Shown here piece by piece: positions 5,444-35,280 of a stretch of 35,280 nucleotides of DNA. The stretch lies in NCBI GenBank assembly GCA_035307785.1, contig DATGHS010000223.1, positions 1-35,280 on the forward strand, given 5' to 3'. Each line of letters opens with the position of its first letter. Positions within the stretch are counted from its first letter, which is position 1. The notes beneath the pieces were generated by a model that saw nothing but the letters and a program-made list of their open reading frames with translations, searched no databases and was not told the origin of the DNA. The position numbers and the translations under genes are program-made. The stretch is from Gemmataceae bacterium. GTDB taxonomy: Bacteria; Planctomycetota; Planctomycetia; Gemmatales; Gemmataceae.

Positions 5444-5572
5444 GAGAACACTTCCCCTCTAATCTTTTGCTTCGCCGCCAGCGGCAAATTCCATTATACG
5501 GCAACCCGTGCCGGACTGCCCAAATTGCCATTCCGCGCTCTTGAGTGCTTGCGTATACTTTTTCGACCGTAG

Positions 5573-5592
5573 GTCAGGCTTTCCAGCCTGAC
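5573..5592. other. 8-bp perfect stem / 4-nt loop hairpin (GTCAGGCT ttcc AGCCTGAC) in divergent intergenic region
   Basis: Read directly. Lies between divergent genes 4415-5443(-) and 5667-6404(+). No T-run, so not a terminator. Possible operator or RNA element. Confidence 0.3.
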
Positions 5593-5666
5593 GCGTCATT
5601 CGGATGGAGTGAATTTGGTCGTCGCCGCTCACCCTGGAAAGGTTGACCTAGAAGGCAAGGTGGACC

Positions 5667-6404: not shown

Positions 6405-6510
6405 AGGAGTGCAAAATGCTTCGGCTTGTTTTTTTCGCCACGTCTGCCTACCCTGTGAGCCGCATGATTGCGGCGGCTTTTCGCCTTTGCACTCGAGCAG
6501 GGATGCTCCC

Positions 6511-8040: not shown

Positions 8041-8045
8041 AAACG

Positions 8046-8120
8046 ATCGGAGCCGGGAGCGCCAGCGACCGGATGAGGGAACACGTCGCTCATCCGATCG
8101 CTGGCGCTCCCGGCTCCGAT
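8046..8120. repeat. 75-nt near-perfect palindrome (32-nt arms, 1 mismatch, 11-nt loop) directly after the stop of 6511-8040
   Basis: Left arm 8046-8077 (ATCGGAGCCGGGAGCGCCAGCGACCGGATGAG). Right arm 8089-8120 is its reverse complement apart from one position. Possible terminator or a REP/MITE-like element. Confidence 0.6.
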
Positions 8121-8329
8121 TGCGCTTCCGGCAACCGGACTCTGCATGCACTTCTTCCTCATTTTGCGGCCTTTGTGTTCTTTATCTCCTTTATGGAGAA
8201 GGCTTTCTGCGGTCTTTTCTCTGGTATTTTCGCTTCCCGGCGTGTATAGTTGCAGAAGGTTTTTCCGCAATTGCAGAGCGCGGCCAGGCTTCATTGGCCG
8301 CACGGCCTATCTTCTCGGTGAGAACTTCC

Positions 8330-14311: not shown

Positions 14312-17300
14312 TTAACCGGATTTGCGGGCCATGCGCGAGGCGCTCAATAGCCCATTATGCGAAGAATAGGCCAGTTTGGAAGCGGGCGGGTAGGCCACGG
14401 CATTCAACTTGCCGCAATCGCTTTGAAGCGTGAGTTGCGGTTCGCCGTTTTCGAGCTTCCAAATGCGCACCGTACCATCCCAGCTACAGGAGGCAAGTTG
14501 CTTGCCGCTTGGAGAAAGCGACAGGCAGCGAATCGATTCGCGATGTCCGCTGAGCGTTTGAATTTCGCGACCGGAGGCCAAATCCCAGCGCTTGATGGTG
14601 GTGTCCCAGCTTGCCGAAAAGAGTGTCTGACCATCGGGGGCAAAGAGGACCGAGCTGACCGCCAGGCCATGACCCGTCATCGCGAGCAGTTCTTCGCCGG
14701 CGGCCTGATCCCAGAGTCGTGCGGTCTTGTCCCAACTGGCGGATGCCAATGTCAGCCCATTCGGCGCAAAGGCAAGCGAAGTCACCATCTTTTCGTGGCC
14801 GGAACAAACGGCGCGGGCGCGGCCGGTTGCCAAGTCCCAGAGCCGGATCGTGCGGTCCCAGCTTCCGGAGGCCAGCACTTTGCCGGATGGATGGAATGCC
14901 AGCGAAGTGACGGCCCCCTTGTGGCCGGTGAGCGTCGCACGTTCGGCCTTGTGCTCTATGTCCCAAAGCTTGATGGTCGAATCCCAGCTGGCCGAAGCAA
15001 GAGTCTGGCCGTCGGGAGCGAATGCCACGCTGGTCACTTCGCCAGTATGGCCGGGAAGCACGACTAAGAGTTCGCCGGACGCGATGTCCCAAATGCGAAC
15101 GGTCTGATCGGCGCTGCCGCTTGCCAGGAATAGGCCATCCGGGGAGAAGGCGAGCGAGTTCACGTCCCGGGTGTGCCCCTTCAACTGGCTCAGCTGCTTG
15201 CCAATCTCGGCATTCCAAAGGGAAACTACCTGATCATTGCCCGCCACAGCCAGCACGGTAGCGCGCGTCGACACCGGCACATTCCTCACGTCGCGCGAAA
15301 CGAGCGGCACGACATGCGTTTCCGACACGCTGCCGCCTGGCGGCATGTCTTCCGTAGGGACCATGTCGTTGAAGCGGGGGATCGGCCTGGCCGGAGTCAG
15401 TTCTAAATCCGAAACGGAAGGTGCGGTGGTCGCACTGCCTGTGGCTTCCTCAGCCGTCGCGCGCGGTCTTCCAGAATTCGCTTCCCAGAAGTAGATGATT
15501 CCATTTGCCCCGGCGGCAGCCACGGTCTTCCCGTCCGGGCTAAATGTCACAGCCGCAATATCGGTTGGAAGACCGGTCCATTCGAAGCGCGATTTGCCGG
15601 TGATCGAATGCCAAAGCTTGACCGAGCGATCGGCACCGGCAGAGGCCAACAACGAACCGGTGCCGGAAAACGCTACAGCCATGACCGGTCCTTTGTGGGC
15701 ATCGATATCCACCCATTCGGCGCCCGTGGCCACGTCCCACAATTTCAGCTGTCCATCGACGCCGCCGGTGGCGACGGCTTGACCTTCCGGCGACATCGCC
15801 AGGCAGCGAATTTCCCGGCCATGCGCGGCAATATGATGCTTCTCGCGCCAATTGGCAAGGTCGAAGATCCGCAACATGCCCATCCCGTCGCCCGTCGCCA
15901 GGCTCTTCCCTTCTTGCGCCGCCGCAATAGCGCGCACCGCAGAATCGTGGCCCAAGAGCGATCGGCGAAGTTGTCTTGTCTGCAAATCCCAGACTTTCAC
16001 CGAGCCGTCTTCGCTGCTGGTAATCAACACCTGTCCATCGGGCGGGAATGCCAGGCCGGTAACAGGCCCGCCGTGGCCCGGTAAGGCCATCATGTCCTGG
16101 CCATTGGTATTCTCCCAAAGGCAAACTTTGCCCGCGCTATCGGCGCTGGCCACGAGCCGGCCATCGAATGGAAATCCAACGGCTGTAACTTCGCTGCCGT
16201 GGCCCTGCAAGCGCGAGAGGATTTCCCCGCTGGCGGCATCCCAGAGAAGCACTTCATTGCCGGAGCCCGACGCCAGAAATTGACCATCGGGTGAATAGGT
16301 TAACGCCTTGATCGGCTTACTGGCAATTCTCGAAAGCACCGATGGTTGCGACGGCTTCGCCTGTAGCTTGCTGGACTTCGGGTCTAACTTCGGGACCGCT
16401 GACTTGCTCAACGCCGGCGCCGATTTTCTATCGGCAGCCAAACCGGGCATCTTCGAGGCAGGCAGGGCTGCCGGCGCCAAAGGCAGCGCGGGGCTGCTTG
16501 CCTTGGCTGGCGCGCTTGCCGCCGGTAGTTGCAGGTTCGCCTTCGATTCCGATTGTGGTAGGCCGGAGGGCTTCTCTTCACCGAGTTGAACCGCGATGTT
16601 ATTCAGCTGCCGGCCCGTGCCCAGGTCCCAAGTCTTGACCGTGTGATCGAGGCTGCACGAGGCCAGCCCGTGGCAATCCGGGGAAAAGGCGATCGACGTG
16701 ACCACGCCGCCGTGGCCTTGCAAGGTCGCGCGCAACTCGCCGCTTTCCGCGCTCCAGAGCTTGACCGTGCGATCCCAGCTGGCCGTCGCGAGATATCGTC
16801 CATCGCGGGAGAAGGCAACGGCGGTCACCTCGCCGCCATGTCCGCGCAACGTGGCGCGTTCCTTCCTGGTTTCCACGTCCCAGAGCCGAATGCTGTGATC
16901 AAGACTGCCGGACGCCAGAGTTTTCCCTTCCCGCGAGAAGGCGACGGAGGTAACGTCACCGTTGTGGCCTTTGAGAACTGCCGCGGTCTTGCCCGTGTTC
17001 ACGTCCCATAAGCGCACCGTTTTGTCCCAGCTGCCGCTGGCCAGCAGCAAGCCACTGGGTGCATAAGCTACCGAGGTGACCATCTGCTCGTGCCCCTCGA
17101 GGGCCCTTAATTCGGCGCGGTCTTTTAAATCCCACAGCCGGACGGTCTTGTCCCAGCCACAGCTGGCCAACCGCGACCCGTCGGGCGAAAACGCCAGCGC
17201 CGTAACTACGCCCGTGTGGCCTTTAAGCGTGGTCACCGCATCGCCGTCGGGAAGCCGCCACAGTCGCACGGTCTTGTCCCAACTGGCACTGGCGAGCGTG

Positions 17301-18607
17301 AGGCCGTCGTCGGCAAAAAGAACGCAACTCACCACCCCGCCGTGGCCGCTCAGCGTGAGCAATTCGTTGCCGCTGGCCGCATCCCACAATTTAATTGTTT
17401 TATCCCAGCTCGCCGTAGCTAGCGCTTTACCGTCGGCCGAAAACGACAACGAAGTGATGTCTCCAGAGTGGCTCGAACTGCTGACAATTCTTGGACGCGA
17501 GGCAGCCTGCTCCGCCACCAGCTCCCAGTCAAAGCGGCTGGCCTTCGGGTTTGGAAGGTCCTGGTCGTGTACCAAATCCAGCGCCGGAGGATCTGCTAGA
17601 GCTCCGCCGTCTTGTACCGCTGGCGGTATCGACTCGCCGGCTGGCAAGCCGGTTGCGACTACAACAGGCACAATCGACGTCTGCCCCTCGCGTGGAGGCG
17701 GCACGGTCTTCGGCGGGGTTACCGGAGGCGCTGGTGGCTGGGCCGGCTCCTCTTTTTGCCAAGGCTCTATTGGCGGCTTGGAGCCACCCGCATCAAAGTC
17801 GACTTCACTGCTGAGCTCGGCTGCCGGGGCCACCGAGTCGGACGGAGTAAACAGATTCACTTGTTGTTTTTGCAGAACGGTGGCCATGCCCAGCCATTGG
17901 GCGAGCGTGTGATATTGCACCGCGGCTGGTGATTGGGGGTTCATCGCGATCACCGCCTTGCCGGCCAGCAGCGCTTTCGGCACCTCTGCGTCATAGGGAA
18001 TGGTTTGCGGCAGAATATAACGGCCAAAGATATGCCGGAGATCCACGTCGAAGCCACGGCCCGCAGTCTCGCCCGGTGGCATGGTGAGGAGGATGCCGCG
18101 CATCTGCACCGCGCTTCCTTGCGACTGCATGGCCTTGATGAGCTGGAGAAACATCGGCAATGTCCGGTACGACATGGGCTCGGCCCGGATGATCAGCATC
18201 AAATTGTCGCTGAAGAAAATGAGCTTGCGGAGCAAGTCACCGGTGACGATGGGCGGCGAATCGATGACCAGCCAGCCGTAGCGCTGCGATGACGGGTGCC
18301 GCGACACCGTCTTGAGAAAATCGTCCATCGGCTGCGTGAAGGCAGCGCCGTCACTAGCCGGTTGGATCACGTCGAGGCCGGGGACAACGTTGCGCCAAAC
18401 CACGCCGTCGGCCGCGATGCCCAGTTCGCGAAGCTGCGCTTTATCGGCATGGAGGTGTAAATTGAGTGACGCGGCAACACTTCCCAAGGGATCGGTATCG
18501 ACCAACAAGACCGGAATGCCTGACAGAGCCGCGGCGGTGGACAGATTAATAGCCGTCGTGGTCTTTCCGACGCCGCCTTTCTGGCTGGCGATCAACAATT
18601 TTCGCAC
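14312..18607 (-). CDS. Giant ParA/MinD-family ATPase fused to three WD40 beta-propellers (ORF extends to 18748; GTG 18607 after GGGGAGG avoids a 100-nt overlap with the upstream gene)
   Basis: N-terminal deviant Walker A LLIASQKGGVGKTTTAINL, Walker B WLVIDSPP. Pro-rich linker, then three blocks of ~7 WD40 repeats (GH..V.S.AFSPDG..LAS.S.D.T..LWD) separated by Ala/Pro/Ser/Lys-rich linkers. 1431-1478 aa. Confidence 0.8.
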   Translation of the reverse strand: MRKLLIASQKGGVGKTTTAINLSTAAALSGIPVLLVDTDPLGSVAASLNLHLHADKAQLRELGIAADGVVWRNVVPGLDVIQPASDGAAFTQPMDDFLKTVSRHPSSQRYGWLVIDSPPIVTGDLLRKLIFFSDNLMLIIRAEPMSYRTLPMFLQLIKAMQSQGSAVQMRGILLTMPPGETAGRGFDVDLRHIFGRYILPQTIPYDAEVPKALLAGKAVIAMNPQSPAAVQYHTLAQWLGMATVLQKQQVNLFTPSDSVAPAAELSSEVDFDAGGSKPPIEPWQKEEPAQPPAPPVTPPKTVPPPREGQTSIVPVVVATGLPAGESIPPAVQDGGALADPPALDLVHDQDLPNPKASRFDWELVAEQAASRPRIVSSSSHSGDITSLSFSADGKALATASWDKTIKLWDAASGNELLTLSGHGGVVSCVLFADDGLTLASASWDKTVRLWRLPDGDAVTTLKGHTGVVTALAFSPDGSRLASCGWDKTVRLWDLKDRAELRALEGHEQMVTSVAYAPSGLLLASGSWDKTVRLWDVNTGKTAAVLKGHNGDVTSVAFSREGKTLASGSLDHSIRLWDVETRKERATLRGHGGEVTAVAFSRDGRYLATASWDRTVKLWSAESGELRATLQGHGGVVTSIAFSPDCHGLASCSLDHTVKTWDLGTGRQLNNIAVQLGEEKPSGLPQSESKANLQLPAASAPAKASSPALPLAPAALPASKMPGLAADRKSAPALSKSAVPKLDPKSSKLQAKPSQPSVLSRIASKPIKALTYSPDGQFLASGSGNEVLLWDAASGEILSRLQGHGSEVTAVGFPFDGRLVASADSAGKVCLWENTNGQDMMALPGHGGPVTGLAFPPDGQVLITSSEDGSVKVWDLQTRQLRRSLLGHDSAVRAIAAAQEGKSLATGDGMGMLRIFDLANWREKHHIAAHGREIRCLAMSPEGQAVATGGVDGQLKLWDVATGAEWVDIDAHKGPVMAVAFSGTGSLLASAGADRSVKLWHSITGKSRFEWTGLPTDIAAVTFSPDGKTVAAAGANGIIYFWEANSGRPRATAEEATGSATTAPSVSDLELTPARPIPRFNDMVPTEDMPPGGSVSETHVVPLVSRDVRNVPVSTRATVLAVAGNDQVVSLWNAEIGKQLSQLKGHTRDVNSLAFSPDGLFLASGSADQTVRIWDIASGELLVVLPGHTGEVTSVAFAPDGQTLASASWDSTIKLWDIEHKAERATLTGHKGAVTSLAFHPSGKVLASGSWDRTIRLWDLATGRARAVCSGHEKMVTSLAFAPNGLTLASASWDKTARLWDQAAGEELLAMTGHGLAVSSVLFAPDGQTLFSASWDTTIKRWDLASGREIQTLSGHRESIRCLSLSPSGKQLASCSWDGTVRIWKLENGEPQLTLQSDCGKLNAVAYPPASKLAYSSHNGLLSASRMARKSG

Positions 18608-18648
18608 GATCCAAACCTCCCCGGCCGGTAGGCGTTGCCGCACCCGGT

Positions 18649-19302
18649 TCAGCGTTTCAACAGTGAGTCGTTCAAATTGCGGGCCAATGTACCAAATGCC
18701 GCGGAAGCCACACCTTGAGGAGGCGGGACCCCGGCCTTGAGCGCCCATTCGCGCATTTCCTGCTGCAAAGGAATGACCGGGCTCAGTAGCAATTCGCGAT
18801 GTCCTTCTTGTAACCGGCTAAGCACAGCGCGTTGCACTTCATCCTGGGCATCATAAATGCCGACTAGCAATCCCAATAATTCGAGCCGGCGATTGGCTTC
18901 TCGCGCCTTGCCAATTATCATTGCCGCGGCCGGCACCGTACGAATGGACAGCGGGTCTGCCAAGCTGGTGAGAATAATGCCGTCCGCCGCGCTCAGCACT
19001 CGCTGTGACAACGGATCAAGCAGCGACGGACTATCCACAATCACAATCTGAGTCTGGTGCGGGCCGGCAAGTGCTTCCAGACCGGTCTGAAATTGCACGT
19101 TCGGCCACGGGCACTGGCCGGCCGAATTCAGCGCCACCATGCTCATGGAACGCATCGGTACCGCGTCCACAAGCGTGACCGAGTGGCCCGCCTGACCCAA
19201 ATGCCAGCCCAGGCATAGCGCCGTAGTCGTCCGCCCGGTACCGCCCTTGTGGCTGACGATTCCCAAAATGTAGGGCGACCTCGCCAATGATTTCTCCTTC
19301 AC
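18649..19302 (-). CDS. ParA/MinD-family P-loop paralog with Walker A Lys-to-Arg (SHKGGTGRTTT)
   Basis: 217 aa. ILGIVSHKGGTGRTTTALCLG: signature first Lys present, GK[ST] Lys encoded as CGG (Arg) at 19231-19233 (checked in DNA). Walker B-like QIVIVDSPS. Confidence 0.7.
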   Translation of the reverse strand: MKEKSLARSPYILGIVSHKGGTGRTTTALCLGWHLGQAGHSVTLVDAVPMRSMSMVALNSAGQCPWPNVQFQTGLEALAGPHQTQIVIVDSPSLLDPLSQRVLSAADGIILTSLADPLSIRTVPAAAMIIGKAREANRRLELLGLLVGIYDAQDEVQRAVLSRLQEGHRELLLSPVIPLQQEMREWALKAGVPPPQGVASAAFGTLARNLNDSLLKR

Positions 19303-23274: not shown

Positions 23275-26200
23275 ATGCACCGGGAGTTACGAACGACGAA
23301 CGAGGCGTTTCAACCGCCGAAGATGGCCGGGCTCTGCCTGTTCACCGGCTTGCTGCTCTTTCTCGTTGGCCGCGACTTGTGGCCTGATTTGGCCTCTTTC
23401 CTCGGCCGCCAGGGGCTTGACCTGCCCACCGGCTCGCGCGAACTCTTCGGCTTCCGCTATGCCCTTTATGCCGCGGTGATTGGCGGCGCCCGGGTACTTT
23501 ACGGTTCACTCGAAAGCCTGTTCGAAGGAAAGCTCGGGGCCGATCTGGCGCTGGCGGTCGCCTGTATTGCCGCCATTCTTATCGGCGAACCGCTGGTTGC
23601 AGCGGAAGTCGTCCTCATCGGCCTGATTGGCGAGTGTCTGGAAGGCTTCACGTTTGCCCGCACGCAAAACGCCATACGCAAGCTGGCCGAACTTTTCCCC
23701 ATTCGTTGCTGGGTGGTGCGCGACGGACAGGAAATGCGCATGTTCGTAAGCGACGTCGTGGTGGGCGATGTCGTCGTCGTAAAGCCAGGGGCCAAGGTGC
23801 CGGTCGACGGCAACGTGCGCGACGGCCGCTCGGCTGTGGATGTGAGCGCGCTGACCGGCGAAAGCTTGCCGGTGGATAAAGGGCCGGGCGACGAAGTCTT
23901 GGCGGGTAGTTTGAACCAGAATGGCGCCTTAACGATTGAAGCAAAGCGCGTGCAGGAACAAACGGTCGCCGGCCGGGTGCTGGAACTCACCGCGAAGGCA
24001 CTGAAGGAAAAAGCTCCGGTAGCGCGGCACGCTGACCGGTTGGCGAAGTACTTTCTCCCAGCCGTGCTGGCCCTCGCCGCCGTGACCTTCATGGCGAATC
24101 TGCTCTGGTACGCGGGTCCCTTCCGCGGGGAAGCGGTGCGCTTGACGCTGGGCCAGGCGGCGCGGCTCAGCATGTACCCGGCCCTGGCGGTACTGGTGGT
24201 CGCATGCCCGTGCGCATTGATTCTCGCCACTCCGGCAGCGGTTATTGCCGCGCTCGGCCGCCTTGCGGGCACCGGGGTCCTGCTGAAAAGTGGGGCCGCG
24301 CTGGAGCGCCTGGCTGGGGTCACGAGTTTTGCCTTCGACAAGACTGGCACCCTAACGGAGGGCAAGCTCGAACTTGGCGATATTCTGCCGGTCGATAGCA
24401 CCACTCCACCGGAACAACTCTTGCGCCGGGCCGCCAACGCGGAACTGCCAAGCGAGCATCCGCTGGCTCGCGTGCTGGTGCAGGAAGCGCAGCGGCGATC
24501 ACTCGTGCTTGATCCGGTCGAGGAATTCATTGCCCATCCGGGAGCCGGCGTGCGAACGCGGGTTGGCGGCAAAACGCTGCTCGTCGGTACACCGCGGTTG
24601 CTGCAGGAGCAAGGCCTGTCGCCCGGCACCGAAGTGCGCGCACTGCTCGAGCGCCTCGAAAACGATGGCCAAACGCCATTGCTCATTGCCGCCGACGGCC
24701 GCATTCTCGGCGCCATTGGAGCGCGCGACCGTATTCGACCGGAAGCTCGCGGCATTATCGTGGAATTACGCGAATTGGGTATACAGGACATCTCGCTGCT
24801 GACCGGCGACCGGAACGCTGTGGCCGTGAAAGTCGCCTCGGACCTTGGCATCGAATCTGTGCATGCCGAATTGTTGCCGGCCGACAAGGCAAAGCTGGTT
24901 ACCGCCCAAGCGGACACGGAAGCAGCACAGTCGGTTGCCTTTGTTGGCGACGGCGTGAACGATGCGCCGGCACTGGCCAGCGCCACCGTTGGCCTGGCGG
25001 TCGGCGGCGGAGCCGAGATTGCTGCCGAGGCGGGCGACGTCGTGCTGATGGGCGATCCGCTGGCGCCGTTGCCGCTTCTGGTGCGCCTATCGCGGCAAAC
25101 GGTTCACATCATTCGGCAAAACATCGTCATCTTCGCGTTTGGCGTAAACATTGTCGGCATTGTCCTCACCGGCTGGCTCTGGCCGCTGCTTGCGCGCTCG
25201 CCGGAATGGTACGAACGCGCTCCGCTGGCCGGCGTGATCTACCATCAGCTCGGCTCGCTGCTCGTGCTACTGAATTCCATGCGGCTCCTGGCCTTTGAAC
25301 GCAAGAGCGTAAAGGCATCCTCCGGCCGGGTACGCAGCGCTCTACAGCAGCTTGATGTCTGGGTCGAGCGGGCCAGCAATGCGGATGAATGGCTGCACGA
25401 GCTTTCGCATCGCTGGAAGCCGATCGCGCTCGGCATCAGTCTCATCGGCGTTGCTGCCTACGCCGCGAGCGGCCTCACGCAAGTGGAGCCGAACGAAATT
25501 GCCGTGGTGCGGCGCTTTGGCCGGCCGCTTGAAGAGGATCTCGGCCCCGGCCTGCACTGGCGCTGGCCGTGGCCGGTGGAAACCGTGCTGAAGACACAGC
25601 CGGATCAAGTGCGCAGCGTGGAAGTGGGCTTTCGGGTGTTGAAAGATCGTCTGGCGAAAACAGAGGGTCAACAGACACGGGCCGCACTCACCTGGCTCAG
25701 CCAGCACGAAAGCGAAGGCGTGCTCCGGATCGAAGGCGAAGCCGTCATGCCCACCGGCGACGGCAACCTGATCGAACTCTTGGCCACGCTGCAATACCGC
25801 CTCCGCTCACCCCGACGCTATTTGCTGGAAGTGAATAATCCGGACGAAATTCTGCGCGCGAATTTGGAAGCGGCGTTGCGCGAACAGGCGGCCGGCGAAT
25901 CGTTTCTGGAATTGCTCACGCTGCGCCGGGCGGAGTTTCAGCGCGAGGTGTTCGCCCGCTTGCAGAAGCGCTTGCAATCCTACGGCGACCCGGGTCTTGG
26001 CATTGTCTTGGAAGGTCTTGCGCTGCGCGACCTGCACCCGCCGGCCCCGGTAGTGCCGTCGTTCCACGACGTGGCCAAAGCCGCCGAGGGGCACGACCAG
26101 ATGATAAAGGAAGCTGAGGCCGAGGCGCTGCGCATTCGCCGTGACGCCGAGAGCAAAGGGAAGGAAATCGAACGCCAAGCCGAAGCCGCCGCGCATCGCA

Positions 26201-26589
26201 CCGTGGAAATGGCGAAGAAAGACCGCGACGCCTTTCTGGCCTGGTACAGGCTGCGAACCGAACTCAGCCCGGCCGTCGAATCGCGGCTGGCAACGGAAAC
26301 GGTCGGTCTGATCCTGGCCGGGCAAGACGTAACCAGCGCCCTGGCCGACCATCAGCGCCGCCGGCAACAGCAACTGGAGAATCAGGCTTTCCTGGTTGAT
26401 TTCCGGCTGACGTGGATGGCCCTGGGCGAAACGCTCTCGCAGCGCGACAAGGTGTTCATCGATGCCGACAAACTCCCAGGCCGCCGCACGCTGCTGCTCT
26501 TCGGTCCGGACCAACTCACACCGCCGCCCATTATCCTTCCAAGCCGCATGCCAGGGCGAGGGCCGGGTGTGGAGGGGGAGGAACGCTAA
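23275..26589 (+). CDS. P1B-type (CPC) heavy-metal-translocating P-type ATPase fused in frame to a C-terminal HflK/SPFH (band-7) domain
   Basis: P1B ATPase motifs TGESLPVDK, CPCALILATPAA, FDKTGTLTEG, VGDGVNDAPALA. No N-terminal HMA/CxxC domain. After the last ATPase helices comes a TM helix PIALGISLIGVAAYAA, then the SPFH domain EPNEIAVVRRFGRPLEEDLGPGLHWRWPWPVETV, then an HflK-like coiled-coil tail (AEAEALRIRRDAESKGKEIERQAEAAA). Confidence 0.8.
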   Translation: MHRELRTTNEAFQPPKMAGLCLFTGLLLFLVGRDLWPDLASFLGRQGLDLPTGSRELFGFRYALYAAVIGGARVLYGSLESLFEGKLGADLALAVACIAAILIGEPLVAAEVVLIGLIGECLEGFTFARTQNAIRKLAELFPIRCWVVRDGQEMRMFVSDVVVGDVVVVKPGAKVPVDGNVRDGRSAVDVSALTGESLPVDKGPGDEVLAGSLNQNGALTIEAKRVQEQTVAGRVLELTAKALKEKAPVARHADRLAKYFLPAVLALAAVTFMANLLWYAGPFRGEAVRLTLGQAARLSMYPALAVLVVACPCALILATPAAVIAALGRLAGTGVLLKSGAALERLAGVTSFAFDKTGTLTEGKLELGDILPVDSTTPPEQLLRRAANAELPSEHPLARVLVQEAQRRSLVLDPVEEFIAHPGAGVRTRVGGKTLLVGTPRLLQEQGLSPGTEVRALLERLENDGQTPLLIAADGRILGAIGARDRIRPEARGIIVELRELGIQDISLLTGDRNAVAVKVASDLGIESVHAELLPADKAKLVTAQADTEAAQSVAFVGDGVNDAPALASATVGLAVGGGAEIAAEAGDVVLMGDPLAPLPLLVRLSRQTVHIIRQNIVIFAFGVNIVGIVLTGWLWPLLARSPEWYERAPLAGVIYHQLGSLLVLLNSMRLLAFERKSVKASSGRVRSALQQLDVWVERASNADEWLHELSHRWKPIALGISLIGVAAYAASGLTQVEPNEIAVVRRFGRPLEEDLGPGLHWRWPWPVETVLKTQPDQVRSVEVGFRVLKDRLAKTEGQQTRAALTWLSQHESEGVLRIEGEAVMPTGDGNLIELLATLQYRLRSPRRYLLEVNNPDEILRANLEAALREQAAGESFLELLTLRRAEFQREVFARLQKRLQSYGDPGLGIVLEGLALRDLHPPAPVVPSFHDVAKAAEGHDQMIKEAEAEALRIRRDAESKGKEIERQAEAAAHRTVEMAKKDRDAFLAWYRLRTELSPAVESRLATETVGLILAGQDVTSALADHQRRRQQQLENQAFLVDFRLTWMALGETLSQRDKVFIDADKLPGRRTLLLFGPDQLTPPPIILPSRMPGRGPGVEGEER

Positions 26590-26883: not shown

Positions 26884-27426
26884 CTACCTCGCCTCCCGTG
26901 GTGAGCTGCCCGGCGGCGGTTGACCGGGGCTCGATTCATTGGCATTGCCCGCCTTGGGCCCGCCCGGCAGATCGGGCCGGGTGGTCGATTGGTCGTTCTT
27001 TAATTCCTGGATGGGCTGACCGAAGTACATGTCCTTTGGTCCTGGGCCTTCCACTCCTTCGGGCCCCGGCACATCGTGATAGCGGCGCAGGAACTCCACG
27101 AGCTTGGCGTATTCTTTGCCCGTCAGATTGGCGCGCACGCGCATGTGGGCGGCCACATTCTGGAAGTTGGAAAATGGCCGCTCGGCCAGCGTAGGCGCAC
27201 TGTGGCAATAGCTGCAATACATCGAAAAGACCTTGCCGCCCGTCAGCGAATCCTCGTACGATTGGCAGCCATTGCCGTCTTTCACCGGCGTCGGCATGCG
27301 CAGCGGCGCCGGACCTTCCTCCAACGTCGAAGTCGCGACCGGCGTTTGGTGGCATCCATACGAGCCGAGGATGCCGGCCATGATCAGGGCCGGGGCAATC
27401 AGCCAGCGCTTCCCTTTGCTTCGCAT
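26884..27426 (-). CDS. Monoheme cytochrome c, probable lipoprotein
   Basis: CSYCHS (CxxCH). N-terminal LIAPALIMAGILGSYGC lipobox-like. Pro/Gly-rich C-terminal tail. Confidence 0.7.
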   Translation of the reverse strand: MRSKGKRWLIAPALIMAGILGSYGCHQTPVATSTLEEGPAPLRMPTPVKDGNGCQSYEDSLTGGKVFSMYCSYCHSAPTLAERPFSNFQNVAAHMRVRANLTGKEYAKLVEFLRRYHDVPGPEGVEGPGPKDMYFGQPIQELKNDQSTTRPDLPGGPKAGNANESSPGQPPPGSSPREAR

Positions 27427-27439
27427 ATACCGCTACTCC

Positions 27440-29026
27440 TTACCAGCCCCAGGCCAATTGGAAGAGCAAATTGTTGTCGTGAAGATGGAACCCGGGCTCG
27501 TCGTTGATTTCATAGGCCGCCTGCAACAGCATGCGCGGCGAAATATAGTAGTTCAGTCCAAACGCATTCTGTTGCCGGGTCACCGGCACATCGACCGGCG
27601 TGGGGTAGGTCCCGATCGTGAGCGTCGTGGGATCGATGCCCTGGAAATTCACGTAGCTATAGCGATAGACGAACTCCAGTTTTTGCAGGAAGCGGTTGGC
27701 ACTGTCGCGCGGCCGGTAGGCGAGCTGGCCATAGAAGCCCTGGCGCACGATGTCGGTGCCAATGATGTCGCCGGCCTGCTGGTACAGCGCGCCGTACTCG
27801 AACCGGAAATCCCAGTTGCCTTTGCGGTAGTTGAAATCGGCCGCCCAAAGCGTGATCGAGTCGTTGAAGCCGGCCATGTACGGGCCGTTGTACATGGCCG
27901 ACAATCCGGCCGCCAAACCAACTTCCGGCCACCACAGGCCGATTCGGCCGCCGAATGCCTTTTGATTCGAGATCAGGCTAAACGTGCCTTCCATGCCTTC
28001 AAGGTTGGCCAGCTCATCGGGAGTCGGCGCTCCAGGCGCTCCCGGCGTCACGTTCATGGCGTTCGACACGTACGCGTTGTACTCAAGCTTGATTGGCGAA
28101 CAGCCCAGGTAGAAGGAGCCTTGTGCTTGGACGCCCAGTAGCGCCGTCGGCGGCAAAACTTGCATCCAGAGGATCGGCACGCCGCCGGGCGCATCGCCGG
28201 GGAGCTTGTTGATCCAGGGATTATTCAGGCGCTCGTTGTACCAGCCGATCGGCGCCACAAAGCGGCCGGCAATGATTGTCAGCCAGTCGTTGACAAAGAA
28301 GTCGGCCTGGAGGAACGTCGGATTCACGGTCCCGCCGGCGCCGACCGAGATTTCGCCCTCGAAGAGAATCCACTCGTTGAGCTTCAGGAAGAAGTCGGGC
28401 GAGAATTCGCCGAAGTAAAAGCCTCCTGGCACATCGGGCCGCCCGGCGCCATTGGCCGCCGTGGTTGGGTCGCCCAGGAGCTTCGCGTAACCAAACGCCA
28501 TCGTGCTGTAAATGCTAAGCGGCGATTCATTGGTCTGGCTGGGGAAGAACAGTTCTTTGAGCTGCGTCGGCAAGCGCGGTCCGTTGCGTTCGTCGGCATC
28601 GATATGCGCGTTGAGGGCATCGACCGCCGATTCCAATTGCTGGTCGCGCTGGGCCGCTTGCACCGAGCGCGCTTCCAACGTGGCGGTCTGCGCCTGAAGC
28701 TTTTCGATGGCGGGAGCGGATGGCGGCTGCTTTTTCAGTTGCTCGGCCAGCAGTTCGATCATTTTCTGCTGAAGCTCGACTTGCTTGCGCAATAACTCGA
28801 CTTGCTTCTTGACGTCGTCGTCTTTGGGTTCGTCGGCCTGGATGCGCACAAATTCCGGCGGCGCAGCGGCCGAATCTCGAACCGGCGGACCAAATTGCGC
28901 CGCCGCCGGACTGGGCATTCTGGGGGGGGCAAGAATGGGCTGGCCCGGACTTTCCTGGCCGCCGGCGTTATTCGTGGCCACCAGAACCACCGTTGCCATC
29001 AGGGCAGCGCCAAACCAAATGCGCAT
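27440..29026 (-). CDS. Outer-membrane porin-like protein: N-terminal coiled coil + C-terminal beta-barrel (DcaP-like architecture); ORF extends to 29122
   Basis: Signal peptide MRIWFGAALMATVVLVATNNAGGQE at 29026. Coiled-coil KKQVELLRKQVELQQKMIELLAEQLKK. Alternating aromatic/Gly beta-strand region ending in an aromatic C-terminus (LAWGW). Confidence 0.55.
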   Translation of the reverse strand: MRIWFGAALMATVVLVATNNAGGQESPGQPILAPPRMPSPAAAQFGPPVRDSAAAPPEFVRIQADEPKDDDVKKQVELLRKQVELQQKMIELLAEQLKKQPPSAPAIEKLQAQTATLEARSVQAAQRDQQLESAVDALNAHIDADERNGPRLPTQLKELFFPSQTNESPLSIYSTMAFGYAKLLGDPTTAANGAGRPDVPGGFYFGEFSPDFFLKLNEWILFEGEISVGAGGTVNPTFLQADFFVNDWLTIIAGRFVAPIGWYNERLNNPWINKLPGDAPGGVPILWMQVLPPTALLGVQAQGSFYLGCSPIKLEYNAYVSNAMNVTPGAPGAPTPDELANLEGMEGTFSLISNQKAFGGRIGLWWPEVGLAAGLSAMYNGPYMAGFNDSITLWAADFNYRKGNWDFRFEYGALYQQAGDIIGTDIVRQGFYGQLAYRPRDSANRFLQKLEFVYRYSYVNFQGIDPTTLTIGTYPTPVDVPVTRQQNAFGLNYYISPRMLLQAAYEINDEPGFHLHDNNLLFQLAWGW

Positions 29027-29353
29027 GGGAATTCTCGCCAGTTCGCTCGCACAATCGACGGGCCCAGGGCACCAGGCCCGCGCAGATTCGCCGCGCCGCC
29101 GTGGCGCGCGGATTTGCCGCAATTGCCGATTGGGCAGAATGTACTGGTATTATCGGTTTTGCTGCGTTTATTAATGAGCGAACTTTGGCAAACCGACCGT
29201 GCTTCAAGCCAGATGCAAGGTAGCAATTCAGCGAGCGCATGGTGCAAGCAATCTCAACGCTTGCAGCTCATGCGGCTACAACATTCCTTGTGCCGGAAAC
29301 TTCTCTTTCAAAAAAGTGACAAGGATTTCGCCTTTCATTGCTGGGTTTCGCCA

Positions 29354-32300
29354 ATGCGACCTTACTTTCATTCGTTCGTCCTGGTTTTCGTCGGTTTGAC
29401 TCAATCCTCCTCATTCGCACAAACGCCGCCCATCCGAAACGGCACCGACGCCGCGCGGAAGGAGATGGCCGCGTTCCGCTATCCGGCCGGGCTCAAAGTC
29501 GAACTGTTTGCCTGCGAGCCGATGCTCGCCAGTCCGGTGGCCATTTGTCTCGACGAAAAGGGCCGCGTGTTCGTGGCTGAGGAGTATCGTTTCAACCAGG
29601 GGACGGAAGAGAACCGCACGCGCCCGTTTTTGCTCGAAGATGACTTGCAGTTGCGCACAGTAGATGACCGCCTCGCCATGTACAAGAAGCATGCTGACAA
29701 GTTTCCTGGCGGCATGAGTTGGTTCTCGAAACATTCCGACCAGGTGCGCATGCTGGTGGACCGCGCCGGCACCGGCCATGCCGATTATTCCACCGTCTTT
29801 GCGGGCGGCTTCAACGATCCGCTCGACGGTCTGGCCGCAGGAGTCCTGGCGCGCGACGGAAACCTTTATTTCACCTGCATTCCGCATCTGTGGCTGCTGA
29901 AAGACACGAGAGGCACCGGTCACGCCGACGTGCGCATTCCGTTGCATCGCGGCTTCGGCGTCGATTGCGCCTTCCTGGGCCACGACTTGCACGGCCTGAC
30001 TTGGGGACCTGACGGCAAGTTGTATTTCTCGGTGGGCGATCGCGGGTTCAACGTCACCTCGAAGGAAGGGAAGACCTTCGTTGGCCCGCGCACCGGCGGC
30101 GTGTTTCGCTGCAATCCCGACGGCTCGGAATTGGAGCTAATCTTCCGCGGCCTGCGGAATCCACAGGGGTTGGCCTTCGACCAGTACGGCAACCTCTTCG
30201 CCGACGACAACAACTGCGACAAGGGCGACGATTCGCGCCTGGTCTACATTGCCGAAGGCGGCGACGCGGGCTGGAATATGGCCTACCAGACCATCCCCGA
30301 GCCGTATCTCACCGGCCCCTGGCACGCGGAGCGCATGTGGCATCTGTACCACAAGGGCCAACCGGCGTGGATCGTGCCGCCGGTGGGCAAGATCGGCACC
30401 GGGCCGTCCGGCTTCGAGTTCACGAGCGGCATCAGCCTACCGCCGCGCTACCACAACCGCTTCTTCATGTGCAATTACACCGGCAACGGCGGCGTGGAGT
30501 CATTCGGCGTCGTGAACAAAGGCGCGGGTTTCGAGATAGTCGATTACCACGATTTCCTCAAGCCGATCCACGCGACCGACGTAAAGATGGGCTACGACGG
30601 CAAGCTTTATGTTTCCGATTTCGTTGACTTGCTCTGGAACGGCGGCACAGCGGGGGGGCGGATTTACACGGTGCTTGATCCGGAGCGGGTGAAGAGCCTC
30701 CAGGTACAAGACGTCCAATCTCTGTTTAAAACGGGCATCTCCCGCCTCGCCCGGAACAGCGATTTGGCGGAGTTAATGGCCTATCCCGATTTGCGCGTCC
30801 GACAACGTGCTCAGTTCGCGCTCGCCGAACGCGGCGCGAAATCGATAGCCGTGCTTAACGAAGTGCTGGCACACGGGTTCCGACATCCTGAATGGAACAC
30901 GGAACAACTAGGCAGAATGCACGCTATCTGGGGCCTGGGACAAATTGGCCGGCACGCACCAGAGGCATTGAAAAAGCTGCTGCCCTTCCTTAAAGACCCG
31001 GATGTCGAAATTCGTGCCCAGGTCTTGCGCATTCTTGGTGATGACCATTTCCGTGGCGCAGAAGACGAGTTCGTAGGCCTGCTGAAGGATGAGAGCCCGC
31101 GTGTCCGCTATTTCGCGGCGATGGGGCTGGGAAAACTAAAGCATCGCGCTGCCGTCGATGGCCTTTTCGCCATGTTGGAACAGAATCATGACGACGACCC
31201 CTTCCTTCGTCACGTGGGGATCTATGCTCTGGCTCAAATCGGCGATGCCGAAGCGGTGCAAGCCCGAGCGAAGCACCCGTCGCCATCGGTTCGCGTGGCT
31301 GTCCTCCTCATTCAGCGGCGCTTGCAAGACAAACGAATCAGCCAGTTCCTGAACGACAGCGAACTCGACATCGTCACGGAAGCGGCGCGGGCCATTCACG
31401 ACCTGCCGCTCGACAGCGAGCTTCCCGCTCTGGCCGCCGCCCTGGATCGCTTCGCCGGCCGAATGGAATCGGAAGCGGAGCCCTTGCTGCGCCGGATTAT
31501 CGATGCGCATTTCCGCCTGGGTCAAGCCGAGAACGCACGGGCTTTAGCTCGCTATGTGGCCAACGACGCCGGTTCGCCGCGAATGCGCTCGGAAGCATTG
31601 TCCGCCCTGGCCGACTGGACCGAGCCATCACCCCGTGATCGCGTGACCTGGTTCTGGCGGCCGCTGGCCAAGCGCGATCAGCAGATCATCAAGCAGGTAT
31701 TGGAAGAATCCATCGGCACGATCCTGAGCCGGACTTCGGGCCAGCCACAGATTCAAGCGGTTAATCTCATCACGAAGAATCAGATCAAGGCCGACGATGG
31801 CACGTTCTTCCGCTGGCTGACCGATCCACAGCGCGATGGCCCGGCTCGTTTGGCCGCCCTCCGACTGCTCGTGTCCCGCAAGTTTCCGCAGTTGGACCTC
31901 GCCATTGGACTGTGCATGAAAGACAGCGACCCGCACGTCCGCGCGGAAGCTCGCCAGGCCCTGGCAGGTCTTCATCCCGAATTGGCCACGCCCTTGCTGG
32001 CTGAAGCACTTTGCCGGCCGCAAAGCGCGGTGGTGGAGAAACAGCAGGCCCTGGCCACCTTGGCCCGGATGCGCGCTGAGCCGGCCAGGAAACTTCTCGA
32101 AGCCTGGGCCGCCCGGTTGGCCAAGGGCGAAGCGCCGCTGGAACTGCAACTCGACTTGCTCGAAGCACTTGGCCAAGTGCCCGGCGATCCCTTCAAGCAG
32201 GCGATTCAGAAATTCCAATCCAGGCAATCGCCATCCGACCCGCTCGCCAAGTTTCGCGTCAGCCTGTACGGCGGCGATGCCGAGCGCGGCCGGCAATTAT

Positions 32301-32695
32301 TCGTCGGCCATTCGGTGGCCCAGTGTATCCGCTGCCACAAGATCGACGGTCAGGGCGGCGATGCCGGGCCGGATTTGTCGAAGGTCGCCGAGCGCAATCC
32401 CAAGAACACGCGCGAGTATCTACTGGAATCGATGATCTTCCCGAACGCCAAAATCGCCCCGGGCTATGGTTCCGTCACGCTGACGCTAACCAACGGCAAA
32501 GTCGTCGCCGGCATCGTCAAGTCCGACACCGAGCAAGCCGTCGTGCTGCTTGGCTCCGATGGAAAAGAAGTAACTGTGCGCACTAAAGATATTGAGGAGC
32601 GCACGGCGCCAACGTCCGCAATGCCGGAGATGGGCCGCGCGCTCTCGCTGCGCGAATTGCGCGATCTGGTGGAATTTCTGGCGGCAAGGAAATGA
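29354..32695 (+). CDS. PVC-type membrane-bound-dehydrogenase-domain / HEAT-repeat / cytochrome c protein (TIGR02604 + TIGR02603-like architecture)
   Basis: ORF from 28802, but the first 184 codons are antisense to the porin gene. Signal peptide MRPYFHSFVLVFVGLTQSSSFAQ at 29354. Beta-propeller dehydrogenase-like block (GLAFDQYGNLFADDNNCDKGDD). HEAT repeats (DPDVEIRAQVLRILG, SPRVRYFAAMGLG, SPSVRVAVLL). C-terminal CIRCHKIDGQGGDAGPDL heme site. Confidence 0.8.
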   Translation: MRPYFHSFVLVFVGLTQSSSFAQTPPIRNGTDAARKEMAAFRYPAGLKVELFACEPMLASPVAICLDEKGRVFVAEEYRFNQGTEENRTRPFLLEDDLQLRTVDDRLAMYKKHADKFPGGMSWFSKHSDQVRMLVDRAGTGHADYSTVFAGGFNDPLDGLAAGVLARDGNLYFTCIPHLWLLKDTRGTGHADVRIPLHRGFGVDCAFLGHDLHGLTWGPDGKLYFSVGDRGFNVTSKEGKTFVGPRTGGVFRCNPDGSELELIFRGLRNPQGLAFDQYGNLFADDNNCDKGDDSRLVYIAEGGDAGWNMAYQTIPEPYLTGPWHAERMWHLYHKGQPAWIVPPVGKIGTGPSGFEFTSGISLPPRYHNRFFMCNYTGNGGVESFGVVNKGAGFEIVDYHDFLKPIHATDVKMGYDGKLYVSDFVDLLWNGGTAGGRIYTVLDPERVKSLQVQDVQSLFKTGISRLARNSDLAELMAYPDLRVRQRAQFALAERGAKSIAVLNEVLAHGFRHPEWNTEQLGRMHAIWGLGQIGRHAPEALKKLLPFLKDPDVEIRAQVLRILGDDHFRGAEDEFVGLLKDESPRVRYFAAMGLGKLKHRAAVDGLFAMLEQNHDDDPFLRHVGIYALAQIGDAEAVQARAKHPSPSVRVAVLLIQRRLQDKRISQFLNDSELDIVTEAARAIHDLPLDSELPALAAALDRFAGRMESEAEPLLRRIIDAHFRLGQAENARALARYVANDAGSPRMRSEALSALADWTEPSPRDRVTWFWRPLAKRDQQIIKQVLEESIGTILSRTSGQPQIQAVNLITKNQIKADDGTFFRWLTDPQRDGPARLAALRLLVSRKFPQLDLAIGLCMKDSDPHVRAEARQALAGLHPELATPLLAEALCRPQSAVVEKQQALATLARMRAEPARKLLEAWAARLAKGEAPLELQLDLLEALGQVPGDPFKQAIQKFQSRQSPSDPLAKFRVSLYGGDAERGRQLFVGHSVAQCIRCHKIDGQGGDAGPDLSKVAERNPKNTREYLLESMIFPNAKIAPGYGSVTLTLTNGKVVAGIVKSDTEQAVVLLGSDGKEVTVRTKDIEERTAPTSAMPEMGRALSLRELRDLVEFLAARK

Positions 32696-32830
32696 AGGCG
32701 GAGTTTTTTTAATTGGTCCCAGTTTTGTTTCCCGAGGGCGGCACCGGCAGTCCGACAGAACGACACAGTTGCGGGAATTGGAGGTAGGTCCTGTCCAATA
32801 CTACCGGTGCGGCGCGCCGTCGGGCTGCTT

Positions 32831-33226
32831 CTATTGCGTCGACAAGGTCACCACGTGGGTTTCATAGTTACGGGTGCGCCGGTTCCAGATCAGAAGCTCC
32901 ACGGTCCCATTGGAACGCTGCAGCTCGTTCGGCAGCGGGTACACGTAACCGTTCACGATGCCGATCCGCTTCCCATCCACCCTCACAATGTAATCGCCTT
33001 GTTCCAACCCCAGCCTCCAGGCCGGTGAGTTCACGATGACACTCGTAATACGAGCGCCCGATTCCGTGTTCTCGTAGTACACGCCGAGTTTGTAGATGGG
33101 GTTTCGCCCGCCGGGTACCATTTGCGGCAGTTGCGCCTGAGCCTGGGCCAACGCAACGTCGGCGCCGCCCAAAGCGAAGGCCACCGCAAGACCCAAAGCC
33201 ATCAGGTTTTTGCTTTGGTAAATCAT
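32831..33226 (-). CDS. Small secreted PDZ-like domain protein (ORF extends to 33331)
   Basis: Signal peptide MIYQSKNLMALGLAVAFALGGADVALAQAQA at 33226. ARITSVIVNSPAWRLGLEQGDYIVRVDGKRI PDZ-like core. Confidence 0.5.
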   Translation of the reverse strand: MIYQSKNLMALGLAVAFALGGADVALAQAQAQLPQMVPGGRNPIYKLGVYYENTESGARITSVIVNSPAWRLGLEQGDYIVRVDGKRIGIVNGYVYPLPNELQRSNGTVELLIWNRRTRNYETHVVTLSTQ

Positions 33227-33378
33227 GGGCGTTCTCCTTTCGGGATGCAGTGCAGGTGCCCCCAAATGCTGTCTTCTCTCCTCAACCTTTCTTAATTCAG
33301 GGAAACGGCGAAATCCTGGAGCGATCACCAAACAATTGGATAACCGCCGTATTCCCCGACCTTCCCTTCGCCGTGTGA

Positions 33379-34119
33379 TTAGTCCTTCGGTGGTTGAGAA
33401 TTCTCCTTTTCTTTGAGTTTCCGAATGTATTCCAGTTCGCTCAACGCCAACTTATTGTTGGGCTCGACTTTCAGCGATTGCTCGTAAGCCGCTTTGGCCT
33501 CGTCCAGGCGGCCGAGGTCGATGAGAGTCGCCCCTACTCCACGCAGCGCCACGCCGTGCTGGCTCTGGTTGCTGGCAAATTGCTCCGCCAGCTTCACCGC
33601 CTGCTCATACGACTCCAGCCCTTCTTGCAATCGGCCGAGCCGGTTCAGGATGAACCCCTGTTCGGTGAGCGCGTTGGTTGCGAGCGGCCGGTATTCAATT
33701 TCGACCCGCGAATACTCAAGTGCATCGGCGTATTGCTTCCGCTCGGCCGCGACGAAGGTCTTGTAATGAAGTGCTTCGCCATACGCATAATCCAGCCATT
33801 CGACTTTGCCGAGTTTCGGGTTGGCTTTTTGGTAATACTCGAATTCGGCCTTGTTGGCGAACGACAGATAGGTCGCCTTGGGGTCGGTCATGAGCTTCTG
33901 GAAGGCAGCGATAACCTCGTCGCAAGCCTGATCGACCTCGGCCAGTTTTCCCTGTTGCGCGAGATTGGTGAATTCTTCGATCACTTTGCGATGCTCAAAG
34001 CCAATGCCGGGCTCGAGGCCGGACACCGGCGCGTGCGTGACGACGGGTGTTGACTCCTGCGCGAAAGCGACGTTGGCAATCAAGATGACGCAGAACGTGA
34101 ATAGGTGGCGTGCGAACAT
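33379..34119 (-). CDS. Secreted TPR-repeat protein
   Basis: Signal peptide MFARHLFTFCVILIANVAFAQE. TPR-like helices (ALEYSRVEIEYRPLATNALTEQGFILNRLGRLQEGLESYEQAVKLAEQ..., GRLDEAKAAYEQSLKVEPNN). Confidence 0.7.
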   Translation of the reverse strand: MFARHLFTFCVILIANVAFAQESTPVVTHAPVSGLEPGIGFEHRKVIEEFTNLAQQGKLAEVDQACDEVIAAFQKLMTDPKATYLSFANKAEFEYYQKANPKLGKVEWLDYAYGEALHYKTFVAAERKQYADALEYSRVEIEYRPLATNALTEQGFILNRLGRLQEGLESYEQAVKLAEQFASNQSQHGVALRGVGATLIDLGRLDEAKAAYEQSLKVEPNNKLALSELEYIRKLKEKENSQPPKD

Positions 34120-34395
34120 GGCATTCCCTCCCTATCGTTCGATTTGACGACGGTGAAGCGCCAGCCTCGCCGGCATAAAGTCCCAAGCAGAATCTCGGAC
34201 CGAGGCACCGGAAAACGGAGCAAACCTTGTGCCCGCATAAACCAAGCGGCTGGCGGAGAGTGCAAACAGCAGGAAATGACGGGATTTAGCGAGGCGGTAT
34301 CAAGAACGGCGAGTGCCTGGACCAGCAAGCGGCGCGCGGCCCCCGCACGCCGCCGCGAGCGGTGTGTGCCGAACCCGCACGGACGAATTCTGTTC

Positions 34396-34530
34396 ATGAG
34401 CGAGCTGTATCGCATCGTTGAAGACATCGACGAGCGCCCGATCCGAACGCCCGCGATCCCGCAAATAGGCTGCGCGCTGTCGCTGCGCGAATTGCGCGAT
34501 CTGGTGGAATTGTTGCCGGCAAGGAAATGA
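34396..34530 (+). pseudogene. Remnant/duplicate of the 3' end (~40 codons) of a PVC cytochrome-c protein paralogous to 29354-32695
   Basis: 34470-34530 (gcgctgtcgctgcgcgaattgcgcgatctggtggaattgttgccggcaaggaaatga) is near-identical to 32637-32695. Encoded EDIDERPIRTPAIPQIGCALSLRELRDLVELLPARK matches KDIEERTAPTSAMPEMGRALSLRELRDLVEFLAARK. Upstream ORF sequence is unrelated. Confidence 0.5.
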
Positions 34531-34702
34531 GGGTTGTGTCACTTCAACTGAGTAGTTCAAAATCTTAGATGACAACTCAATTTGATCCACATTCTTGGGA
34601 TTTTCTTAAGAATTTTGCTTGACTCGCAGAAGCGCGCATGTTCTCATGGCAGGCAGTCGCGTGCTGGATTGCCCCCACACTCTCTACGCTAGGATCTGCC
34701 CC

Positions 34703-35280
34703 ATGAAGTTGCCCCCGCGCTGGTTCGGCAGGAATCGCATTTGGCTGAGGCTCGAACAACTCGAAGACCGCAACGCTCCTTCCGACTCACTCTCGGCCAT
34801 CCTGCAAGCCGCCTGCCTAAGTAACGCAGCGGTGGATTTTGCCGCTGCACAAACAGCTCCCGCCGGTGACTTCACGACTGCCGAAGACCCACTGGCTGCG
34901 GTCAGCCTCTCATCGTCGTCCCCTGCAACCACCGACTTGACCGAGTGGTTACCTGCCAACGATTCCGGGCGAACCCCGAGCGCTCAGACCGACTTGGATC
35001 GGCCCGCCGCGAACGGCTTATCTTTCGACCAACGCCCGGCCGACGCCCTGTTTGCCAACTGGATCGACAGCAGCATCGACCGGAGCGACCTCTCGGCGTC
35101 TCTCGACGGTCAATCCGCTGGGCCAAGCTTTGTTGCCCCAGGCAACAATGTGCCGGCTCCCCAGCCAGCGGGGGCAGCTACACCGGGCGGCGCGCAGACG
35201 GGGGCGACAAATGCCAATCCCACCAGCGCGTCGCCCTCGTTTTCACCGTCCACAAGCAGCAATTTCACGCCGCCATTTAT
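34703..35280 (+). CDS. 5' end of a secreted/large protein with planctomycete-type N-terminal motif (R..LRLEQLEDRN); continues beyond window
   Basis: ATG 34703. Open frame to window end (not in ORF track because it has no stop). MKLPPRWFGRNRIWLRLEQLEDRNAPS followed by low-complexity Ser/Ala/Pro/Thr-rich sequence. TTGACT -35-like at 34619-34624 upstream. Confidence 0.5.
   Translation, partial: MKLPPRWFGRNRIWLRLEQLEDRNAPSDSLSAILQAACLSNAAVDFAAAQTAPAGDFTTAEDPLAAVSLSSSSPATTDLTEWLPANDSGRTPSAQTDLDRPAANGLSFDQRPADALFANWIDSSIDRSDLSASLDGQSAGPSFVAPGNNVPAPQPAGAATPGGAQTGATNANPTSASPSFSPSTSSNFTPPF

Follow-up and report, generated by a model that had tools for sequence, protein, structure and literature searches.

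We analyzed a contig of 35,280 nt from a Gemmataceae bacterium of the phylum Planctomycetota (GenBank assembly GCA_035307785.1, contig DATGHS010000223.1), hereafter called the window, in which the 3' end of a gene encoding a PVC-type heme-binding CxxCH protein occurs twice on the plus strand. The first occurrence (copy A) is the end of the intact gene at positions 29354-32695, and the second (copy B) lies 1.8 kb downstream in an intergenic region. We consider copy B to be probably a nonfunctional 3' pseudogene relic of the heme-gene lineage that was stranded by a rearrangement and has decayed neutrally, with a core most likely re-homogenized by gene conversion.

Copies A and B form a direct repeat of uneven identity

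A repeat search returned a two-copy direct repeat at 32586-32715 and 34421-34550, with a spacing of 1,835 nt. Identity between the copies was then measured in ungapped register at this offset, where the background amounts to 27%. Copy A (32585-32716, plus strand) comprises the last 37 codons of the intact gene, its stop codon and about 21 nt of 3' flank, and copy B (34420-34551, plus strand) consists of a decayed 5' zone (34420-34471), a core that includes the TGA stop codon (34472-34530) and a weakly matching post-stop stretch (34531-34551). In the core, which corresponds to 32637-32695 in copy A, 55 of 59 positions are identical (P = 1e-26). It harbors an exact 32-mer (32645-32676 in A, 34480-34511 in B), to which the window holds no further match at up to 3 mismatches and which was absent from all of 100 shuffles. 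The 52 nt located 5' of the core, out to 32585 in A and 34420 in B, are identical at 36 positions (P = 3e-10). Past the stop codon, 11 of 21 nt are identical (P = 0.012), suggesting that the homology probably extends about 21 nt beyond the coding sequence. Outside this block, identity is at background at both ends. A first-pass annotation, made from the same DNA, had described a near-exact repeat including the stop codon; this was confirmed, except that the core of copy B starts at 34472 and not at 34470. The same annotation had placed protein similarity some 40 codons further upstream, and we found instead 37 codons in total when counted from the stop, i.e., about 18 upstream of the core.

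The match reflects shared DNA and not only a shared peptide

The tail peptide is a family-wide motif, since MP..L..E.RD[LV][IV]E[YF]L was found near the C terminus in 118 of 120 homologs. The A-B match could in principle reflect nothing else than convergent or conserved coding of this common peptide, with no specific DNA duplication. However, among the degenerate codons of the 3' zone that specify the same amino acid in both copies, 14 of 16 are the same codon, against 5.8 expected from the codon usage of the contig (P = 9e-6), and the codons shared include the rare AGG (3% of Arg codons), GCA (10%) and TTG (20%). As controls, we compared the tails of three orthologs (L001 to L003) and of a further sequence, L004, with copy A in this zone and found just 54 to 67% identity and 33 to 57% codon identity. 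L004, a distant family member, was the only other sequence in which a wobble-degenerate scan of the JGI metagenomes found the LRELRDLVEFLA peptide spelled in these codon families, and 4 wobble positions within its 12 codons differ from those of copy A. Furthermore, no gene body precedes copy B. Since the synonymous codons match as well, unlike those of the ortholog tails, the A-B match is more than a peptide motif, and we regard an explanation by the motif alone as extremely unlikely. The first-pass annotation had itself raised a conserved C-terminal sorting motif as the competing explanation; the codon-level identity rejects it, and the term sorting motif was misplaced, the segment being the C-terminal end of the TIGR02603 heme domain.

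Among the 120 homologs, the spelling ALSLRELRDLVE and the ..RK ending were restricted to copy A and its nearest relative, a protein encoded on a 2.6-kb contig (P0019, 75% identical). The best tblastn matches to copy B were likewise the protein of copy A and P0019. Overall, these comparisons indicate that copy B has recent DNA ancestry, or sequence exchange, specifically with the lineage of copy A.

Each copy lies within a separate metagenomic contig

The window is a contig of a metagenome-assembled genome (MAG), and among the DNA read it is this MAG contig that links A to B. An assembler might have joined or duplicated sequence at the shared repeat, in which case the two copies would not truly lie 1.8 kb apart. 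Two contigs from JGI sample 3300027842 bear on this point. The first, L023, equals positions 30274-33441 of the window at 100% identity and carries copy A together with 2.3 kb upstream and 0.75 kb downstream. The second, L005, equals positions 33463-35009, also at 100% identity; in it, copy B is preceded by about 0.96 kb and followed by 0.47 kb. Between the two contigs there is a gap of 21 nt (33441 to 33463), which falls inside a gene encoding a tetratricopeptide repeat (TPR) protein, and neither of them ends at a repeat. While the fact that both stop so close to each other could speak for an artefact, each copy is interior to its own contig, with hundreds of unique flanking bases on both sides, and the TPR reading frame as well as the last TPR repeat (Pfam match to residue 228) are continuous across the 21-nt gap. 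Moreover, database records put the product of the neighboring PDZ gene and the open reading frame (ORF) of copy B on one contig of 20 to 50 kb, and copy B is a distinct sequence, given its own diverged 5' zone. Because L023 and L005 each carry one copy with its own flanks at 100% identity, the sequence data indicate that copy B is not an assembly join, and we judge an artefact to be very unlikely. As to the break between the two contigs (33441-33463), nothing repetitive is evident there, and it could correspond to a drop in coverage or to strain variation.

Copy B is a decayed gene fragment

The gene that ends in copy A is intact and encodes 1,113 amino acids (aa). Its product carries TIGR02604 at the N terminus (160.5 bits, cutoff 122.2; Pfam DUF7133, E = 1e-34), followed by HEAT repeats and a C-terminal TIGR02603 domain (102.1 bits, cutoff 68.15). 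The latter covers profile positions 1 to 132 of 134 and residues 974 to 1110, ending 3 residues short of the C terminus, and the heme motif is CIRCH, which is of the CxxCH type. Both domains that define the PVC-type family hence score above their cutoffs, TIGR02603 together with its CxxCH. One database protein (P0001) is 100% identical to this product; separate exact-sequence look-ups of the 1,113-aa protein and of the 246-aa TPR protein gave no record.

Copy B is carried by a 141-aa ORF (34105-34530) from which CxxCH is absent and in which no full-length TIGR02603 domain was detected (no NCBIfam or Pfam match at E ≤ 0.01). We built a family profile hidden Markov model (HMM) from the last 150 residues of 119 homologs. 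It matched the ORF only at profile positions 114 to 147 of 150 (21.5 bits), corresponding to 34 residues (ORF residues 105 to 138, window 34417-34518), and gave no match to the first 105 residues even with filters off and at E ≤ 1,000 (envelope from residue 87). A longer decayed gene upstream of copy B was considered on account of one gapped tblastn alignment (P0099) that reached position 34141; because the family HMM, with filters off, is blank upstream of ORF residue 105, this alignment was treated as noise. At codon -25, ATG has changed to ATC, and thus the Met of the near-invariant MP motif, presumed by analogy with class I cytochromes c to be the distal (axial) heme ligand, is an Ile in copy B. 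In the 5' zone, 10 of the 13 changed codons are nonsynonymous, which is a small sample. The ratio of nonsynonymous to synonymous divergence (dN/dS) between the copies is 0.65 overall (36 codons) and 0.67 in the 5' zone, values which, small as the sample is, are consistent with relaxed selection, as expected for one constrained lineage and one neutral lineage.

The upstream part of the ORF (34105-34419, plus strand), which overlaps with the TPR gene at its start, bears no relation to the family. It looks noncoding, with a codon log-odds of 0.004 bits per codon as compared to 0.25 to 0.54 for most confident genes of the same contig and 0.087 for the PDZ ORF, and without periodicity of the GC content at third codon positions. 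This is in good agreement with the first-pass annotation, which had described the rest of the ORF as unrelated to the heme gene.

Two public gene calls lie on copy B, both on the plus strand: the hypothetical protein VKS79_10370 (P0122, 34396-34530, 44 aa), annotated by NCBI, and a JGI/ENA call (P0121, 34276-34530, 84 aa). An exhaustive phmmer search against 1.84 billion protein representatives returned no stand-alone homolog of the ORF of copy B, the matches being the ORF itself and three long, unrelated, multi-stretch hits. A word-filtered search with the peptide of copy B, aimed at a parent paralog, gave back nothing but the gene calls of this ORF. The 44-aa and 84-aa calls are probably spurious calls on a relic. 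No other relic of the heme-protein family was found on the contig. Copy B therefore resembles part of a functional gene without its gene body and shows no independent conservation, as is characteristic of a pseudogene fragment, and, judged by its sequence, it encodes no working heme domain. That it has decayed, as proposed at first pass, is supported by the absent CxxCH and the Met-to-Ile replacement, and the dN/dS of 0.65 is consistent with it.

Divergence between the copies varies along the block

Synonymous divergence (dS) reaches 0.51 in the 5' zone versus 0.15 in the core and 3' zone. Correspondingly, identity is 69% in the 5' zone (36/52; 71% over 51 nt) versus 93% in the core, and in the 5' zone copies A and B are no more similar to each other than copy A is to orthologs from other genera (61 to 69%). 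When we asked how often a perfect run of 32 nt would arise among 20 to 30 mismatches, permutation gave p = 0.011 (coding part only), p = 0.006 and p = 0.002 (post-stop positions included), and a two-breakpoint (patch) likelihood test gave p = 0.004. Since the family conserves the peptide of the 5' zone as strongly as that of the 3' zone, constraint acting on copy A alone does not explain the unevenness. The core would appear to be much younger than its flanks and most likely represents a short gene-conversion patch from copy A onto an older, decayed stub; the uneven block also fits a mosaic origin. The possibility of a gene-conversion site, noted at first pass, is strengthened by this profile, which resembles a conversion patch.

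Possible origin and history of copy B

We propose that a past rearrangement stranded a 3' gene end in the intergenic region. This might have happened by either of two routes. In one, the gene end at 34530 belonged to a nearby duplicate or paralog, of which all sequence 5' of codon -37 was lost by deletion; in the other, the tail of copy A itself was copied ectopically. The fragment would then have decayed neutrally, until a short conversion tract from the intact gene re-homogenized its last 59 nt or so. Either route leads to an inert relic.

The first-pass annotation had proposed a decayed paralog or a recombination scar between members of a large paralog family. DNA homology and decay speak for this proposal, but the paralog family cannot be demonstrated because no second paralog is visible: scanning the GTDB representatives with a 27-mer of the core gave no match, and the wobble scan of the JGI metagenomes gave only L004, so that neither further copies nor a parent paralog were found. 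A literature search yielded nothing specific to paralog dynamics of this heme-protein family. Since its closest relatives are copy A and P0019, copy B could be a copy of the tail of A and not the remnant of a distinct paralog.

Several points weigh against our interpretation of copy B as a neutrally decayed, partly converted relic. Copy B is still open in frame and retains its stop codon, which is expected at such a length, and it may still be expressed. The dN/dS values come from 36 codons. A one-breakpoint maximum chi-square test for heterogeneity was not significant (p = 0.10), and the case for conversion is for this reason built on the run-length and patch tests, over some 110 to 130 sites. 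Finally, the history cannot be reconstructed, as the window is the entire contig and the nearest ortholog with readable DNA is only 65% identical; of the ortholog loci compared (P0002, P0007 and P0008, 60 to 65% identical), none shares a neighbor with the window.

The sole plausible present role of copy B would be a passive one, namely, to serve as a direct repeat of 32 perfect (59 near-perfect) nt through which it could recombine with copy A in a RecA-type reaction. Crossing over inside the 32-nt run would remove exactly 1,835 bp and with them the PDZ and TPR genes. In the computed deletion product, the large gene stays in frame and ends in ...LRELRDLVELLPARK*. The 32-nt run is about as long as the minimal length for efficient RecA-dependent recombination in Escherichia coli, as Shen and Huang reportedly described it in 1986.

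Integration or function as explanations for copy B

The arrangement could alternatively be an integration scar, in which a 1.8-kb segment with the PDZ and TPR genes was inserted into the heme gene at its 3' end by Campbell-type or site-specific recombination and copy B is the displaced original tail. Several features are indeed in line with this. The direct repeats are exactly the 3' end of the gene plus a few bases, as are the attL and attR sites of islands that target 3' ends; the left repeat ends an intact gene and the right one is an orphan stub, with sharp outer boundaries; the GC content is slightly lower at 33250-34000 (0.53 to 0.58) than in the flanks; and the codon usage of the PDZ ORF is atypical (0.087 bits per codon). 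However, the interval between the repeats encodes no recombinase, be it an integrase, a transposase or another type, and none was found when ORFs of 200 aa or more were screened over the whole contig; neither tRNAs nor terminal inverted repeats were detected, so that a tRNA target was also dismissed. The segment holds just two ordinary secreted-protein genes, and the codon usage of the TPR gene is typical. In addition, after a simple Campbell integration one would expect the repeat to have diverged evenly over its length and not to show a young core between older flanks. On balance, we consider an integration scar unlikely.

That the core has been kept for a function of its own, as a small protein (44 or 84 aa, with a C-terminal helix) or as an RNA, seems less likely still. 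If it acted as RNA, a TPR-PDZ transcript starting right of copy B would carry in its leader an antisense stretch of about 59 nt against the end of the heme-protein mRNA, and copy B does lie upstream of the TPR start codon on the opposite strand. The lower divergence of the core relative to its flanks, the open ORF and the fact that both NCBI and JGI called a gene would also fit. Against this, there is no stand-alone protein homolog, the residues conserved in the family are lost, no Rfam match was obtained at E ≤ 1, folding was no better than that of shuffled sequences on either strand (z-scores -0.6 to +1.9), no promoter-like site was found near copy B, and the synonymous-site identity to copy A points to recency or conversion and not to independent constraint. 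A structured RNA or terminator was rejected at either copy, with no Rfam match, no excess folding and no terminator-like site. It is more improbable again that the core is actively maintained, with repeats that excise and re-insert a PDZ-TPR cassette through a circular intermediate while keeping the gene in frame, or that the reverse complement of copy B, as part of the TPR-PDZ leader, pairs with the heme-protein mRNA at its 3' end and thereby couples expression of the two.

Comparison with known systems

Copy B is similar to truncated bacterial pseudogenes in that it is a short, intergenic piece of a gene, with neither a start nor the N-terminal domains nor the residues that are essential, lacks conservation as an independent unit and has a dN/dS of about 0.65 (36 codons). 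It differs from them in that its last 59 nt are far less diverged, suggesting later homogenization against the intact neighbor, and in being publicly annotated as a hypothetical protein instead of a pseudogene. As in short-tract ectopic gene conversion, a patch of near-identity (32 nt perfect, 59 nt at 93%) lies between older, more diverged homology. However, there is one A-B pair with about 130 sites, descent with uneven decay would still be possible, and the polarity of donor and recipient is shown only by the match of the core of copy A to P0019.

The 3'-end duplications known as attL/attR likewise consist of the 3' end of a protein gene, which is intact at one repeat and reduced to a stub at the other, but here the interval is 1.7 kb, no mobility gene was found and the repeat is not uniformly identical. 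Finally, the repeat is reminiscent of the template and variable repeats (TR/VR) of diversity-generating retroelements, since it covers, over about 110 nt, the codons for the C terminus of a large protein of secreted type and has a second, noncoding copy nearby. Unlike in these elements, the mismatches are not adenine specific, no reverse transcriptase is present on the contig and the repeated segment is conserved and not variable. Indeed, only 3 of the 23 A-B mismatches fall on adenines of copy B and 4 of 23 on adenines of copy A, and such a retroelement was rejected. In all, the 23 mismatches comprise 13 transitions and 10 transversions of all types.

Genes surrounding the repeat

Two minus-strand genes lie between the copies. 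The PDZ gene (32831-33226) encodes a predicted secreted protein of 131 aa from its ATG (PDZ_6, E = 8e-8), and the exact 131-aa product was also called on JGI contig L023. The TPR gene (33379-34119) encodes a protein of 246 aa with a signal-peptide-like N terminus (TPR_12, E = 3e-10), the relatives of which are distant, generic TPR proteins only. A divergent intergenic region of 583 nt, which holds copy B, separates the TPR gene from the next downstream gene (34703-35280, plus strand). The latter starts with MKLPPRWFGRNRIWLRLEQLEDRNAPS, which we take to be an LEDR-type N-terminal motif, presumably common in planctomycete secreted proteins. It runs off the end of the contig, and its 192 visible residues had no family match in Pfam or NCBIfam. 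Right after the stop codon of the large heme-protein gene (32696-32716), GGCGGAG is followed by a run of seven T residues that is missing from copy B, and a terminator scan found no canonical hairpin after this stop codon.

Upstream of the large gene (27233-29353), there are long overlapping ORFs on both strands, none with an NCBIfam match: 27440-29122 (minus strand, 560 aa), 27233-28141 (plus strand) and 28160-28795 (plus strand). The frame of the large gene itself has a TTG-initiated 5' extension of 184 codons that begins at 28802.

Other features of the contig

A plus-strand ORF of 1,104 aa (23275-26589) encodes a heavy-metal P-type ATPase (TIGR01525, residues 90 to 671, E = 8e-164) that is joined at its C terminus to an HflK/SPFH-like region (TIGR01933, residues 737 to 1017, E = 8e-35). 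Such a fusion, in which a transporter is linked to a membrane-scaffold or protease-modulator domain, is unusual. On the minus strand, an ORF of 1,478 aa (14312-18748) has an N-terminal ParA/MinD/BcsQ-type ATPase (residues ~50 to 287) followed by a TolB/WD40-like beta-propeller (~900 to 1350), an atypical architecture. The regions 7-1410 (plus strand) and 4415-9109 encode a WD40 beta-propeller protein and a bpMoxR AAA+ ATPase (PF20030, "MoxR-vWA-beta-propeller ternary system"). Three ORFs that follow bpMoxR (5667-6404, 6409-8040 and 7952-9109) had no Pfam match and could represent the rest of the ternary system.

Significance

Copy B is a real feature, but it is an ordinary gene remnant, i.e., ordinary genomic debris, and opens no new biological question. 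Its value is first of all one of annotation: the 44-aa VKS79_10370 and the 84-aa JGI call very probably correspond to the relic and are best handled as a pseudogene fragment. Furthermore, copy B offers one small, clean case, from a planctomycete, of divergence that varies along a repeat in a manner consistent with short-tract gene conversion. Together with copy A, it forms a 32-nt perfect direct repeat that could mediate an in-frame deletion of 1.8 kb.

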